A stretch of 34,575 bases of DNA from a virus, in the IMG/VR virus record IMGVR_UViG_3300035670_009674, positions 1 through 34,575 of that record; one strand, given 5' to 3'. The translations under genes were made by a program, and so were the position numbers. The notes under the pieces are model-generated. The model was not told the DNA's origin and searched no databases. It was given only the letters and a program-made list of their open reading frames with translations. Each line of letters begins with the position of its first letter. The stretch's first letter is position 1. Below, in pieces: positions 1-34,575 of the stretch.

Positions 1-127
1 ACATCATCCCCAAAAAGTTTCTGTTACAAAAACATTAGAAGTTACTTCCGGTCCGCTTCCCGCTCCTGCTATTTTAGAAAAGTATGAAGTCATAGTTCCA
101 GGAGCGGCCGAAAGAATTTTTAAATTA
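1..127. repeat. Terminal overlap copy A (identical to 34449..34575)
   Basis: Base-by-base comparison: acatcatccccaaaaag...gaatttttaaatta is present at both window ends. Confidence 0.95.
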
Positions 128-400
128 CTTGAATCGCAGACTCACCACAGAATAGCTCTTGAAAAAAAGGTTATTAATTCTGAGACAAGAAATTCAACTC
201 TTGGGATTGTCGCGGCATTTATTATCTCTTTTCTCTTCTTTGTTTTGGCTGGTTATGCTATCTATACTGGAAGCCCAATTGCCGGCGCTATAATTGGTGG
301 AATTAATTTAGGCTCGATAGTTTGGGTATTCATTTATGGGTCAAAAACCCGTCGCGAAGAAAGGCTTGAAAAGGCGCGCCTTGAGCACCGCCCTCAGTAA
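2..400 (+). CDS. DUF2335-like membrane protein, C-terminal part; the gene wraps the window junction (N-terminus at 34429..34575)
   Basis: Frame is open from the window start. Translation reads ..TLEVTSGPLPAPAILEKYEVIVPGAAERIFKLLESQTHHRIALEKK.., followed by two hydrophobic helices (LGIVAAFIISFLFFVLAGYAIY and IAGAIIGGINLGSIVWVFIY). Stop TAA at 398-400. The SGPLPxPxxLxxYExxxPGxAERI signature matches DUF2335 as I remember it. Confidence 0.7.
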   Translation, partial: HHPQKVSVTKTLEVTSGPLPAPAILEKYEVIVPGAAERIFKLLESQTHHRIALEKKVINSETRNSTLGIVAAFIISFLFFVLAGYAIYTGSPIAGAIIGGINLGSIVWVFIYGSKTRREERLEKARLEHRPQ

Positions 401-563: not shown

Positions 564-1619
564 TCAGGTAGTAAAATCGGGATTGATAGCAATTTTGATA
601 GCAGTCCCGATGTTGATTTTCTCGATTTCAGGACTATACTCAGGTGCCAGATGAGCGTATCTAAGGGTGGTCTTGAAATCAGAATGGCCTAGCCACGATC
701 TTAAAAGCGGCAGGCTGATTCCATTCTGAACCGCCCGTGACGCAAACGTGTGCCTGAGTAAGTGCCATGCACGACCGGGGCGCTTCACTCCAGCCGTCTC
801 TAGGATCCGGTTGATATGCGGCTCTGGCAGGTCTTTGTAAGCCTTCCCGAGCGTACTTGGAAACAATAGCCCTGTTTTCTTCTTTAAGTGCCCCAGTTTG
901 GCAACAGCCTCTTTGGATAAGGGGATTGCCCTAACCTGGTAGTTTTTGACCGTCCAGCTCAATTCTGGCTTGTTTTTCACATACACCAGAGGCTTTGGGG
1001 CCCAAATAATGTCTTTTCCTTCTAAATGAAGAATTTCACCAAGCCTTAGCCCTGTGTATCTGGCGATCACGACCATATCTTTGAACCTGCCGCCAAAGTA
1101 TTTTTCGGCCGCCGACTCAATCTTAAGGTATTCTTCGTCCGTGTAAAAATCGACATGGGTTTGGGGGACCTTCCTGAAAGATATTTTGTCAGCGGGATTG
1201 TGACCCAAGTAGTGCGGTACCGCTTTTGATATAAATGTCCTGATGGTCCCGCGGATATTGTTCCAAGTTTTTGGTCCTATTTTTTTCTTAAGAAGCCATT
1301 CCTGGATCAAGTCTTGCGTTATGTGAGACAGTTTTTTGACTTTGGTTTCCTCGAGAAAGTTTTTTATTCTCATAAGGTCTTTTTTGGCCGTGAATGGTTT
1401 CAGGTGGGCTAGGTGATTTTTCTCATACCAATCAAGGTAATCGGAAACGCATTTATCGATTTTAAATCGATGGAATTCTTGCTCGAGATCAACATCGAAT
1501 TTTGATTGAAGGATAGAAGCTGTCTTTCGGTCTTTTGTTTTTAGAGACCTAAGATACCTTTTTCCGTCCTTGAAATAGGAGTAGTAAAAGGTTTTGTTGC
1601 GCCGGAAGATAGTGGACAT
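564..1619 (-). CDS. int: Tyrosine recombinase / phage integrase
   Basis: 351 aa. C-terminal catalytic motifs ARYTGLRLGE (Arg), HLLRHTFAS (H-x-x-R) and GHSDFKTTLRYAHL (His..Tyr). Adjacent to the att-like region. Confidence 0.95.
   Translation of the reverse strand: MSTIFRRNKTFYYSYFKDGKRYLRSLKTKDRKTASILQSKFDVDLEQEFHRFKIDKCVSDYLDWYEKNHLAHLKPFTAKKDLMRIKNFLEETKVKKLSHITQDLIQEWLLKKKIGPKTWNNIRGTIRTFISKAVPHYLGHNPADKISFRKVPQTHVDFYTDEEYLKIESAAEKYFGGRFKDMVVIARYTGLRLGEILHLEGKDIIWAPKPLVYVKNKPELSWTVKNYQVRAIPLSKEAVAKLGHLKKKTGLLFPSTLGKAYKDLPEPHINRILETAGVKRPGRAWHLLRHTFASRAVQNGISLPLLRSWLGHSDFKTTLRYAHLAPEYSPEIEKINIGTAIKIAINPDFTT
584..606 (+). repeat. 23-nt direct repeat copy 2 (inside the 3' end of the integrase gene)
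   Basis: Exact copy of 407..429, 177 nt downstream of copy 1. On the minus strand it encodes the TAIKIAI residues of the integrase C-terminus. Confidence 0.7.
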
Positions 1620-1864
1620 TACGGGGTCGTGTCTAACCGGAGAAGTTTGCTGAGTTCAGTCCCACCTTTTATCTTAACGCCCATTTTTTTGAGTAGGTGT
1701 TTTATGCGGCGCTTTTGAGCTTTAAACCTTTCGCGCACCTTCCAGCGTGTTTTCCAAGCCCGATCACGATCTTCTTGGATCTCCACGAGAGCGTTACGGT
1801 ATGTTTGGAGTTTTTCGAGGGCTTGTCGCACCTCCCATTCGTTTGGATTGAATTGATCGGTCAC
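1619..1864 (-). CDS. Hypothetical basic helical protein (81 aa) in the lysogeny operon; possible recombination directionality or regulatory factor
   Basis: ORF is start/stop-overlapped with both the integrase and the upstream gene. Lys/Arg-rich predicted helices. No family recognised. Confidence 0.55.
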   Translation of the reverse strand: MTDQFNPNEWEVRQALEKLQTYRNALVEIQEDRDRAWKTRWKVRERFKAQKRRIKHLLKKMGVKIKGGTELSKLLRLDTTP

Positions 1865-2415
1865 TTTTTAAGAGCTGACAAAATATCTGAAATCTTTTGG
1901 TAAACATCTTTTGGTTTTTTGATGTATTCCCAAACAGTCTCGGCCATAGGGCTGCCGGCTGTATTAAAAACAATTTTCCCCAGGTCGCTCAAAGCGTATG
2001 TTTTTAAGTGGTAATCTGTTATTTTTTGAAGTGGGAGTTGAGTTATCTTTTTACTCAACACCCCTCGGATGGAGATTATTTTTTTATCAGTTATTGCGTA
2101 TAAGACGCAACGAGCCGCAACAAATGACCACACGATTGAGACCCCAAGAAGCCACGCAATAATGACGGCAAAGGTTTTTGATAGCATGAGCGCGAACAGC
2201 AAAACAATGAGCAGCAGAACAGATCCGTTAAAAAACATTCTTGGCGCCGGCCGGAGCTCTAAAAATATTTTTTCTCCTGCGGTCAAATAGCTTTTTGGAA
2301 TCAGTTTTGGGGATTCATAGCCAGGGAGAGACGCTTTGAATTCGCTTCCACAATGTTTACACTTAACCGCTTCGTCTTGGATCTCTTCAGCGCAGAATTG
2401 GCATTCTTTCATCAC
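1861..2415 (-). CDS. Zinc-ribbon + bacterial PH-domain (bPH_2/DUF304-like) membrane protein
   Basis: N-terminal CQFC..x12..CKHC zinc ribbon. Two hydrophobic helices (GSVLLLIVLLFALML and AVIIAWLLGVSIVWSFVAA). Then YAITDKKIISIRGVLSKKITQLPLQKITDYHL..GKIVFNTAG, typical of the YdbS/YdbT-type PH domain. ATGA overlap with the repressor gene. Confidence 0.7.
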   Translation of the reverse strand: MMKECQFCAEEIQDEAVKCKHCGSEFKASLPGYESPKLIPKSYLTAGEKIFLELRPAPRMFFNGSVLLLIVLLFALMLSKTFAVIIAWLLGVSIVWSFVAARCVLYAITDKKIISIRGVLSKKITQLPLQKITDYHLKTYALSDLGKIVFNTAGSPMAETVWEYIKKPKDVYQKISDILSALKK

Positions 2416-3053
2416 TTCACCTTCTTCATATAGATAGCTTCAACGACCCCGCGGAGCTGAATTTCTTCTTTAGGACCAAAAGTCATAGCTTGATGCTCTG
2501 GATTTGTAGAGTCGGGGACAAGCATAACGTTTTGTCTCGTTCGGTAGAATCGTTTCAATGTGCATTCGCCATCGACTTTGACCACAGCAATATTGCCATT
2601 CTCAGGAAGCTTGTCCGCGTCAATAAGGATATAGTCGCCGTCGTCAATTCCGGCCTTATTCATTGAATCACCGACTACACGGAGAAGATAAAGCCGGCGG
2701 CCGCGGATGTCTTTTTTAAGCACCGGATACCATCCTTCAACGTCGTCCAGTTCCCAGCGCTTAGGAGAAGCCGGGCAGTTGCCAAGAAGAGGAATCTTGT
2801 CTGCTTGTTTGAACTCAATGCCTTCCTGGGGGATAGGGGACTCGAGATCCCCGGTCAATGTCATCAGGAATTTGTAATCGACTCCAAGATGGGGAGCGAG
2901 TTTTTTTAAGAATTCTACCGTCGGTTTTGATTTCTCGTTTATCAGGCGCGAAATATAAGACTGACTGACCTTGCAGTTCTTAGCCAGAGCGTTACCAGAG
3001 ATTTCTTGTTTCTTAATGGTATCTTTTATGAAACTACTGAGAGTTTTATTCAT
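2412..3053 (-). CDS. CI/LexA-like phage repressor (XRE HTH + S24 peptidase domain)
   Basis: HTH segment GNALAKNCKVSQSYISRLINEK. S24 motifs VVGDSMNKAGIDDGDYILID (Ser) and ECTLKRF (Lys). The ORF is open up to a GTG at 3098, but ATG 3053 (MNKTLSSFIKD..) gives the usual HTH spacing. Confidence 0.9.
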   Translation of the reverse strand: MNKTLSSFIKDTIKKQEISGNALAKNCKVSQSYISRLINEKSKPTVEFLKKLAPHLGVDYKFLMTLTGDLESPIPQEGIEFKQADKIPLLGNCPASPKRWELDDVEGWYPVLKKDIRGRRLYLLRVVGDSMNKAGIDDGDYILIDADKLPENGNIAVVKVDGECTLKRFYRTRQNVMLVPDSTNPEHQAMTFGPKEEIQLRGVVEAIYMKKVK

Positions 3054-3065
3054 GGCAAAATTATA
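3054..3065 (-). promoter_or_regulatory. Possible PRM-like -10 (TATAAT) 6 nt upstream of the repressor ATG, implying a leaderless cI transcript
   Basis: Minus strand reads TATAAT-TTTGCC-ATG. There is no SD sequence between them, and the -35 at 17-nt spacing is poor (ATCGTT). Confidence 0.35.
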
Positions 3066-3126
3066 GCTACCCCTATCTATAAAACGATAACAAAACACAA
3101 AAAAAATAAATAATTATAAAAAAGGA

Positions 3127-3154
3127 TTGACACAGGAAAACATATCATTATGAT
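3127..3154 (+). promoter_or_regulatory. Early rightward promoter (PR-like): TTGACA-N16-TATGAT
   Basis: Consensus -35 TTGACA at 3127-3132 and TATGAT at 3149-3154, in the divergent repressor/cro intergenic region. Confidence 0.6.
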
Positions 3155-3227
3155 TATGCACATATCGAACATCGTAAACGACACAGCCGTCAAGCGTTAC
3201 GAAGGGAGCAAGGAGGCAGTGAAAAAA

Positions 3228-3467
3228 GTGGTTCATGTCAAGATAAATAGCCTAGAAAAAATCATAGCGAAGCGCAATTGGTCATTCCGGGATCTAGCAA
3301 AGAGAGCCGGGATAAGCCCTGCCACAATCTCAAGGTGGAAGAACGAACAGGTTCCAGTAAGCGCTTCTAGCAGACGCAAGCTGATGGACACCCTTCCAGG
3401 GTGTAATTTTAATCGTATTTTTTTGATTAAAACCGTTCGATATGTAGATAACGCTAGTCATGAATAA
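3228..3467 (+). CDS. Cro-like HTH regulator
   Basis: HTH segment WSFRDLAKRAGISPATISRWKNEQ. AGGAGG at 3211-3216, then in-frame GTG at 3228. The ATG at 3150 lies inside the predicted -10, so the long form is unlikely. The exact start is uncertain (3219 or 3228). Confidence 0.75.
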   Translation: MVHVKINSLEKIIAKRNWSFRDLAKRAGISPATISRWKNEQVPVSASSRRKLMDTLPGCNFNRIFLIKTVRYVDNASHE

Positions 3468-3660
3468 CTACCTCACTATCGAAGGTCTCGCCAAATATTT
3501 GAACTTTGAGACTAAAACCATTTATTGCTACTGGAAGAAGTGGGCAACCCAAGGGCTCAAGGTTTATGTGGTGGGGCGCTCGCCTCGCTTTAAATCGACT
3601 GATGTGGACTCATGGATCGAGAAAAACTGCCGGTTGATAAACGGGGAAGTGAAGCTGTGA
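3460..3660 (+). CDS. Excisionase/AlpA-type HTH DNA-binding protein
   Basis: 66 aa. The LTIEGLAKYLNFETKTIYCYWKK..GLKVYVVGRSPRFKSTDVDSWI pattern is typical of the HTH_17/excisionase family. Its start overlaps the cro-like stop. Confidence 0.65.
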   Translation: MNNYLTIEGLAKYLNFETKTIYCYWKKWATQGLKVYVVGRSPRFKSTDVDSWIEKNCRLINGEVKL

Positions 3661-34196: not shown

Positions 34197-34445
34197 ATGG
34201 GTGAGTATCCAACAAGGGCAGGCAGGTTGTTCGCACGCCCGTCTTTTATCGAGGGAGCGGCCAGGGTAATAGACATGGGCTGCACTCTTACAGAATTCAA
34301 TCGAAATAAAACAGGCGAAGAAGCGGACCAGGCCGCAATTTTATCCGATTGGTATTCTATCGGAGACGACATGCGATCTGCGATCAGGACCTACACCCAC
34401 GAACAAGACCAAGAGGTCCAAAATAAACTTGTCGCAATCGCCTAA
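34197..34445 (+). CDS. Hypothetical 82-aa protein, first gene of the moron operon
   Basis: GGAGG lies 7 nt upstream of the ATG. Preferred over the antisense ORF 34112..34372, which lacks an RBS. Confidence 0.65.
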   Translation: MGEYPTRAGRLFARPSFIEGAARVIDMGCTLTEFNRNKTGEEADQAAILSDWYSIGDDMRSAIRTYTHEQDQEVQNKLVAIA

Positions 34446-34575
34446 TCAACATCATCCCCAAAAAGTTTCTGTTACAAAAACATTAGAAGTTACTTCCGGT
34501 CCGCTTCCCGCTCCTGCTATTTTAGAAAAGTATGAAGTCATAGTTCCAGGAGCGGCCGAAAGAATTTTTAAATTA
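34429..34575 (+). CDS. DUF2335-like membrane protein, N-terminal part (continues at nt 2..400 across the circular junction)
   Basis: The frame is open with no ATG. In-frame TTG 34429 gives LSQSPNQHHPQKVSVTKTLEVTSGPLP.., about 139 aa in total. The start codon is uncertain (CTG 34378 is also in frame). Confidence 0.5.
   Translation, partial: MSQSPNQHHPQKVSVTKTLEVTSGPLPAPAILEKYEVIVPGAAERIFKL

Follow-up and report, generated by a model that had tools for sequence, protein, structure and literature searches.

A zinc-ribbon/bPH_2 membrane protein from a variable repressor-integrase slot in a temperate phage

Introduction

What do temperate phages encode between repressor and integrase? Genes wedged at this position are a productive place to seek anti-phage functions, and PH-domain proteins recur there. 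The question is raised here by the phage of IMG/VR virus record IMGVR_UViG_3300035670_009674, analysed over its full 34,575 nucleotides (nt; the window). Two genes of its minus strand, at 1619-2415, separate a cI-like repressor gene from the integrase gene int. One encodes a protein of 183 amino acids (aa) that joins a zinc ribbon, a membrane hairpin and a bPH_2 domain; the other encodes a basic protein of 81 aa. What is new is that comparison with sister prophages places this two-gene cargo insertion in a defined variable slot. By analogy, the 183-aa protein may be a lysogen-expressed, membrane-level superinfection-exclusion or abortive-infection factor, a tentative reading held at slightly less than even confidence. 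PH-domain proteins between repressor and integrase were already known from lactococcal phages; the window adds the membrane-anchored bPH_2 type. The case extends the slot pattern to this membrane-anchored family, to a zinc-ribbon fusion and to phages of Omnitrophota, for which there is, to our knowledge, almost no phage biology.

The repressor-integrase block

The window covers a temperate phage in full, 34.6 kb: the record holds an entire virus genome of 34,575 bp (CheckV 100%, IMG/VR), with direct terminal repeats that were measured at 127 bp. The genome is siphovirus-like: the integrase/repressor module is at the left end, early genes follow, and the terminase, portal, capsid and tail genes are on the plus strand. 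Its most likely host is an uncultured bacterium of the Omnitrophota. The genes of the minus-strand block are, in order of reading:

2412-3053, minus strand: cI/LexA-type repressor, first gene of the operon, with HTH_3 and Peptidase_S24 domains
1861-2412, minus strand: first cargo gene, predicted 183-aa zinc-ribbon/two-transmembrane-helix/bPH_2 inner-membrane protein; alternative GTG start at 2415 (184 aa)
1619-1864, minus strand: second cargo gene, 81-aa basic helical protein of isoelectric point (pI) 10.4, with GTGA and TAATG overlaps
564-1619, minus strand: tyrosine integrase of 351 aa, last gene of the operon (Phage_integrase PF00589, 62.9 bits; phrog_1, 8e-54)

This order, and the overlap of each gene with the next, had been described in the initial annotation; both are borne out by the open reading frames and the junction reads, which are AAGTGATGAAA, AAAAAGTGACC and CCGTAATGTCC in order. 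(i) The TGA stop of cI and ATG 2412 of the 183-aa gene share 1 nt (TGATG), or 4 nt if GTG 2415 is used. ATG 2412 is the likelier start because the family alignment opens with MKxC. (ii) The stop of the 183-aa gene and the GTG start of the 81-aa gene overlap by 4 nt (GTGA). (iii) The stop of the 81-aa gene and the ATG of int overlap by 1 nt (TAATG). A consensus scan found no terminator-like site on the minus strand from 3053 to 570, and a terminator-like hairpin directly after int, at 570-554. Only weak promoter-like sites (9/12 matches) lie on the minus strand within the block, at 1635-1606 and 1147-1120. From this gene packing, the cargo genes would be co-expressed with the repressor in the lysogen. 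Since the 183-aa gene directly adjoins cI and is preceded by a Shine-Dalgarno-like site of its own, its product is probably made with the repressor in lysogens.

The repressor has the N-terminal helix-turn-helix (HTH) and C-terminal S24 autopeptidase domains of the cI/LexA class (HTH_3 PF01381, 38 bits; Peptidase_S24 PF00717, 76 bits; phrog_4, 8e-31). Its C-terminus, ..GVVEAIYMKKVK, is kept in the sister prophages.

A variable slot in sister prophages

Sister prophages were sought in 401 sampled Omnitrophota genomes. Searches with two integrases found the window integrase type in 14 of them, and three have the cI-int arrangement (G066, G036 and G325). One sister, syntenic with the window phage, is the 30.8-kb contig G066:C24, with 54% identity in terminase and portal, 52-80% in capsid-region genes, 47% in tail and 54% in integrase. 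Its slot is empty: the last 45 bases before int encode the cI end ..IRGVVDSIYLKKVK with its stop, and the int ATG follows at once. In G036, a 61-aa protein whose N-terminus resembles a signal peptide (L281:1315-1500, plus strand) is encoded after cI (..VDSIYLKKVK, then stop) and before int. In G325, a 120-aa BamE-like lipoprotein stands between cI and int (L290:2474-2836, minus strand; lipobox LFSGC; PF04355, 33 bits). The 61-aa protein and the BamE-like lipoprotein are further candidate exclusion genes.

Common to the sister prophages are the end of cI (..YLKKVK, then stop) and the start of int (MSTIF..). Because these same ends flank different cargo or none, the slot is variable and 1619-2415 is cargo. 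Across four phages it is either empty or holds a small exported-type protein, a lipoprotein or the 183-aa/81-aa pair, natural comparison sets that define the slot precisely. Apart from the 81-aa protein, the occupants are predicted membrane, exported or lipoprotein products. To judge from sequence, a variable, tightly packed slot of this kind is a signature of putative lysogen-expressed accessory genes, and it is far stronger support for the cargo idea than position alone.

Integrase-based scans of viral contigs found no sister phages. A terminase-based scan gave two related viral fragments (80% and 49% complete), in which neither int nor the bPH gene was found; one of the two covers 5.8 kb upstream of the terminase.

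Architecture of the 183-aa protein

Three modules were recognized in the 183-aa protein:

2341-2403, minus strand: N-terminal Cys4 zinc ribbon, residues 4-24 (CxxC-x10-CxxC), predicted cytoplasmic
2110-2232, minus strand: membrane helical hairpin, residues 61-101, from AlphaFold2 helices and the positive-inside rule
1867-2103, minus strand: bPH_2 domain (PHb2, former DUF304; PF03703) with C-terminal helix, residues 104-182, predicted cytoplasmic

The initial annotation had read this architecture from the letters, and it is sustained by a Pfam hit, a structural model and invariant cysteines. PF03703 matches residues 104-167 with 33 bits against a cut-off of 22, and all seven close homologues carry it. 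The bPH_3 score is 18.1 bits (cut-off 23), and Pfam finds no SHOCT domain. The best bPH-type PHROG match is phrog_3707, 'membrane-flanked domain' (3.7e-7), in the category of morons. C4, C7, C18 and C21, which form two CxxC knuckles, are invariant in the eight-member family alignment A1. The module is a predicted zinc ribbon. Profile scoring upheld the bPH_2 half of the earlier assignment and not the other: the zinc-ribbon models reached about 18 bits (18.4 and 18.1, against cut-offs of 27 and 25; PF13240/PF13248, Zn_ribbon_3 and Zn_Ribbon_1). PF13248 is precomputed for some of the homologues.

An AlphaFold2 model was built on the eight-member family alignment. Its mean pLDDT is 74.6, with zinc ribbon and linker poorly ordered. 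It shows a short strand (49-53), helices 61-77 and 79-101, a beta-sandwich and a helix at 167-182. Six strands between 104 and 165, closed by the C-terminal helix and preceded by the membrane hairpin, make up a PH fold. The residues invariant in the PH core of the family are Y105, T108, K110, T151-A152-G153 and W161. In the PDB, Foldseek places two bacterial PH structures first, 3dcx and 3hsa (E ~1e-4, probability 1.00), and eukaryotic PH domains next; a sequence search of the PDB with the family profile found nothing.

The hairpin helices have no charged residues, and the outer loop is only three residues long (SKT). Lysine and arginine number four on the N-flank, five on the C-flank and one in the loop. 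With Lys/Arg on both flanks, the positive-inside rule therefore predicts an N-in/C-in topology with zinc ribbon and PH domain both cytoplasmic, in agreement with the cytoplasmic placement claimed earlier for the zinc ribbon. The protein should show almost nothing to the periplasm.

PH-domain proteins in the slots of other phages

Bacterial PH domains were defined by Xu et al. 2010 (PMC2817789), who found them in phage lysogeny modules (ul36 ORF124, Min1 ORF77). DUF304 (= bPH_2) proteins were predicted there to be membrane-anchored, with an intracellular and possibly ring-forming PH domain, and transporter or pore roles were proposed. The 'sie285' gene, orf2 of bIL285, encodes a PHb protein of a constitutively expressed lysogeny module (Aucouturier et al. 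2018, PMC6127208). Ruiz-Cruz et al. 2020 (PMC7693887) state that SieF7/2AB, a pair of genes whose presence makes skunavirus plaques smaller, is identical to TP901-1 Orf2/Orf3. Both TP901-1 ORF2 and bIL285 orf2 are treated as superinfection-exclusion candidates (PMC6127208, PMC7693887).

In Pfam, bIL285 orf2 and TP901-1 ORF2 are bPH_3 plus SHOCT proteins (bPH_3 81 and 78 bits; TP901-1 SHOCT 31 bits) encoded between int and repressor, and their neighbours are Peptidase_M78 proteins. ORF124 of ul36, beside int, is bPH_1 (135 bits). With the bPH_2 protein of the window, all three Pfam families of bacterial PH domains therefore occur between integrase and repressor. Sie2009 was also considered as a PH protein and was rejected, as it scores as tRNA_anti-like (OB) in Pfam. 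Lysogeny-module cargo of the exclusion type had been suggested in the initial annotation. The idea gains from the sisters, with the same cI and int ends and other cargo or none, and from the PH proteins of the lactococcal slot (PMC2817789, PMC6127208, PMC7693887).

The likenesses have limits. TP901-1 ORF2 (SieF7/2A) and bIL285 orf2 resemble the window protein as PH-domain proteins encoded between int and repressor on the repressor strand. However, they are bPH_3 plus SHOCT proteins in which Pfam detects no membrane or zinc-ribbon domain, whereas the window protein has bPH_2, a transmembrane hairpin and a zinc ribbon, and no bPH_3-SHOCT combination. Pairwise similarity between the two types is confined to 39 PH-core residues (E 2e-5). 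SieF7/2AB also has an adjacent Peptidase_M78 (ImmA/IrrE-like) gene, whereas the window protein is neighboured by the unrelated 81-aa protein and by a repressor with its own S24 domain.

Other relatives share the fold or the slot. Bacillus subtilis YdbS and Enterococcus faecalis DdE belong to PF03703 too and have the same core, in which a two-helix hairpin precedes one cytoplasmic PH domain (PMC8657885). They lack the zinc ribbon and lie beside a three-PH partner, YdbT or DdF, in cellular or bacteriocin loci, whereas the window protein is encoded in a prophage. DdE and DdF, the only bPH_2 proteins tested so far, are both required to export the leaderless bacteriocin EntDD14 (PMC8657885). Ring-like oligomers are documented for PHb1 proteins (PF08000; 3dcx, 3hsa), which match the model best in structure (PMC2817789). 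Like ul36 ORF124, these are soluble single-domain proteins of another PH family than the window protein, for which oligomerization is only presumed. Sie2009 (Tuc2009) and the Ltp lipoprotein (TP-J34) occupy the same slot by the same logic, that of an envelope protein made with the repressor. Their folds are unrelated to that of the window protein, and Ltp is an exported lipoprotein whereas the window protein is mostly cytoplasmic.

Distribution of the zinc-ribbon/bPH_2 family

A word-indexed search found 138 relatives of the 183-aa protein. Close relatives that match over the full length number only seven (BLASTP identity 34-44%), including one from an Omnitrophica metagenome-assembled genome. 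In the ESM Atlas, several clusters with 57-231 members each are labelled 'Bacterial PH/zinc-ribbon domain-containing protein'; their sources include Chloroflexota, Acidobacteriota and Omnitrophota, and there are remote cellular homologues in Myxococcota and other phyla. The domain combination is therefore not the unusual one that the initial annotation took it to be: it is not rare, being catalogued though uncharacterized. In six to eight Myxococcota-type loci (L084:4353-8121 and relatives), the order Ser/Thr kinase (Pkinase plus PEGA), TPR, bPH_2 is conserved, with a remote zinc-ribbon/bPH_2 protein in third place.

The N-terminal motif MKKCPxCAEEIQDEAxKCKHCG is by itself a very common head of membrane proteins on viral contigs and in Omnitrophota genomes, and about one-fifth of the 401 genomes have a family-profile match at E <= 1e-10. 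Twelve Omnitrophota matches that were translated (L242, L243, L249-L264) are proteins of ~100-130 aa with two transmembrane helices and no PH domain; their zinc ribbons are almost identical (MKKCPFCAEEIQDEAIKC[KR]HCGE). The zinc-ribbon motif dominated the scans of genome and metagenome contigs with the family alignment, and no close homologue was among the matches listed. On viral contigs, the full alignment found mostly unrelated zinc-ribbon membrane proteins, and the transmembrane and PH part alone found one relative, at a contig end. A tblastn search of INPHARED with the 183-aa protein gave zinc-ribbon matches only. Two full-length family members were found among the 401 Omnitrophota genomes, one of them on G066:C24 (30% identity, 7e-29; bPH_2 38 bits).

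The family is best described as an accessory module of phage and cellular membranes, whose role need not be uniform. On viral contig L003 (6001-7618), a protein with a zinc ribbon, one transmembrane helix and a beta-rich part stops 2 nt ahead of an integrase gene. Zinc-ribbon membrane proteins beside int may be a wider pattern.

Proposed role and alternatives

The model tentatively favoured for the window is as follows. (i) Positions 1619-2415 are a two-gene cargo insertion in the variable slot between repressor and integrase genes. (ii) The product of the 183-aa gene is predicted to have its Cys4 zinc ribbon in the cytoplasm, where a flexible linker joins it to a tight two-helix membrane hairpin. 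(iii) The bPH_2 domain would be packed on the inner face of the membrane. (iv) By analogy with other bacterial PH domains, the protein would probably oligomerize through this domain. (v) Its position and analogues suggest that it would most likely act from the cytoplasmic side as an exclusion or abortive factor. With a protective function, the large DUF304/bPH_2 family would gain one of few concrete roles beside the peptide export of DdE/DdF; without one, the 183-aa gene would be one more ordinary accessory gene.

Several observations weigh against this model. No PADLOC model matches the 183-aa protein. An exclusion role is a putative one, plausible from position and analogy, and transcription from a repressor promoter is likewise presumed. 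The lactococcal analogues belong to other PH families and have neither transmembrane helices nor a zinc ribbon; their phenotype is only moderate, and is seen only together with a second gene. Remote homologues occupy ordinary cellular operons, such as the kinase and TPR loci of Myxococcota. The G066 homologue is on the lytic strand, with VRR-NUC on one side and a DNA methylase/terminase block on the other. A homologue on viral contig L273 lies beside a VRR-NUC-like gene (assigned by motif), and bPH_2 'membrane-flanked domain' genes are conserved in ~155-kb Salmonella phages. Because homologues occur among lytic-strand genes (G066, L273) and in the Salmonella phages, the family is not tied to lysogeny.

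The same lytic-strand neighbourhoods, and the conservation in the Salmonella phages, favour a protein that serves the cycle of the phage itself, in membrane anchoring of replication or packaging, in lysis timing or in lytic-growth exclusion, its slot position being incidental. This is unlikely for the window phage, in which the gene is packed behind the repressor. Since the gene was not found in the two related viral fragments and shifts position between sisters, an accessory gene fits better than a core function. Another alternative is lysogenic conversion that benefits the fitness of the envelope and has no anti-phage role. Like YdbS/DdE, such a protein would move or resist membrane-active peptides in bacteriocin export or tolerance, or in envelope stress. 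Two transmembrane helices with one PHb2 core are the design of YdbS/DdE, and DdE/DdF are needed for EntDD14 export (PMC8657885). Transporter or pore roles were proposed for DUF304 (PMC2817789), and a weak NCBIfam match to PuhB (6.5e-6) hints at membrane-complex roles. However, no multi-PH partner of the YdbT/DdF type was found: across the phage genome there is a single match, to the 183-aa protein, whose gene is flanked by cI and the 81-aa gene. The phage showed no bacteriocin-like gene, and the zinc ribbon has no counterpart in YdbS and DdE. An envelope-fitness role is also doubtful. The exclusion model can be widened to a pan-bacterial class of lysogeny-slot modules, in which bPH_1, bPH_2 and bPH_3 proteins would act at the cytoplasmic membrane face. 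Here the zinc ribbon, near-identical to that of the abundant ~100-aa two-transmembrane-helix family of the host phylum, would let the protein dock at a conserved membrane partner of the host that incoming phages need, or compete for it. This extension is speculative and quite improbable.

The 81-aa protein and the excisionase question

The 81-aa open reading frame is taken as a real gene. Its codon-usage score is positive only in the annotated frame (+0.13; the other five, -0.12 to -0.59) and resembles that of neighbouring small genes. The protein has no match in Pfam, PHROG, NCBIfam or PADLOC. A word-indexed search returned only the protein itself, and the ESM Atlas gave sub-threshold matches only. 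An exhaustive phmmer search of 1.84 billion representatives found five remote relatives (E 8.6e-8 to 9e-4), none with a Pfam domain. A C-terminal block, KxQKRxIKxLLxxxGxxIKxGxxLSxLLRLD, defines the tiny family that they form with the 81-aa protein; the N-termini ahead of it vary from 0 to 150 residues. The structural model (pLDDT 84) consists of helices 9-60 and 68-75. One relative of 160 aa is encoded on a 20-kb viral contig (L274:4719-5201, plus strand), where it is the sole plus-strand gene and is flanked by early genes on one side and a lysis/tail block on the other. This position is typical of a lysogeny or moron gene; no integrase lies within 5 kb on either side.

The initial annotation had suggested that this protein could be either a regulator of its 184-aa neighbour or a recombination directionality factor, and neither proposal fares well. 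A single two-component system, whether toxin-antitoxin, abortive-infection pair or membrane effector with regulator, is suggested by the 4-nt overlap, by apparent acquisition in the same slot and by the precedent of lactococcal SieF7/2AB, a two-gene system (PMC7693887). It is nevertheless very improbable. No member of the 81-aa family was found near ~20 other zinc-ribbon/bPH_2 loci, so that the pairing of the cargo genes is not conserved; the sole other locus of the 81-aa family that was examined has no bPH gene, and PADLOC matches neither protein. A directionality factor for the adjacent integrase, to which the gene would be translationally coupled, is highly unlikely too. In lambda, xis is translationally coupled to int. 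The window protein is small and basic and is encoded directly upstream of int with a TAATG overlap. However, a search at E <= 0.01 gave no family member in G066, G036 or G325; all three have the same integrase type, and in two of them cI abuts int or nearly does so. Conservation with its integrase in related elements is thus lacking in these three sisters, and for this reason an excisionase role is unlikely. In the structural model the protein forms one long helix plus a short one, with neither an Xis-type winged helix nor an HTH_17 or MerR-like fold, and there is no Pfam or PHROG excisionase match. The sole viral relative is the lone gene on L274, away from any integrase. Co-transcription with the repressor would, moreover, promote excision in the lysogen. 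The early operon encodes a better candidate:

3150-3467, plus strand: cro-like HTH protein (HTH_26, 35 bits; HTH_3, 28 bits)
3460-3660, plus strand: 66-aa HTH_17 protein (PF12728, 24.6 bits against a cut-off of 27; phrog_66, 'excisionase and transcriptional regulator')

The HTH_17 gene follows the cro-like gene in the early operon, as xis does in TP901-1. It is conserved: a homologue in G036 is 52% identical, scores 29.4 bits and lies upstream of cI on the opposite strand. By sequence and position, the product of 3460-3660 is the best candidate for excisionase or regulator of the window phage. The 81-aa protein appears to be a separate passenger, neither a dedicated partner of the bPH_2 protein nor, probably, an excisionase. 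It was also considered as a leaderless bacteriocin exported by the bPH protein, an idea that was rejected: the protein is highly charged, not amphipathic or hydrophobic, and has relatives with long N-terminal extensions.

The switch region and a second membrane gene

The repressor and cro-like genes diverge from a short intergenic region:

3054-3149, no strand assigned: divergent switch region, promoter-like sites on both strands

The strongest promoter-like site is on the plus strand (TTGACA-16-TATGAT, 3127-3154, 11/12 matches) and overlaps the annotated ATG 3150 of the cro-like open reading frame. A perfect AAGGAGG Shine-Dalgarno sequence at 3210-3216 precedes an in-frame GTG at 3228, which is probably the true start and would give a protein of ~79 aa. 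On the minus strand, the cI ATG (3053) is preceded at a distance of 6 nt by a perfect TATAAT (3065-3060), without a good -35 hexamer. These sites are putative promoters. If the TATAAT is used, the repressor mRNA would be leaderless, as is lambda cI mRNA from PRM.

A DUF2335 membrane protein gene (2-400, plus strand, and 34429-34575) spans the ends of the record, beside the attP side of int. It scores 55 bits and matches phrog_3996, 'membrane protein', in the moron category; it is a second candidate lysogen-expressed membrane gene.

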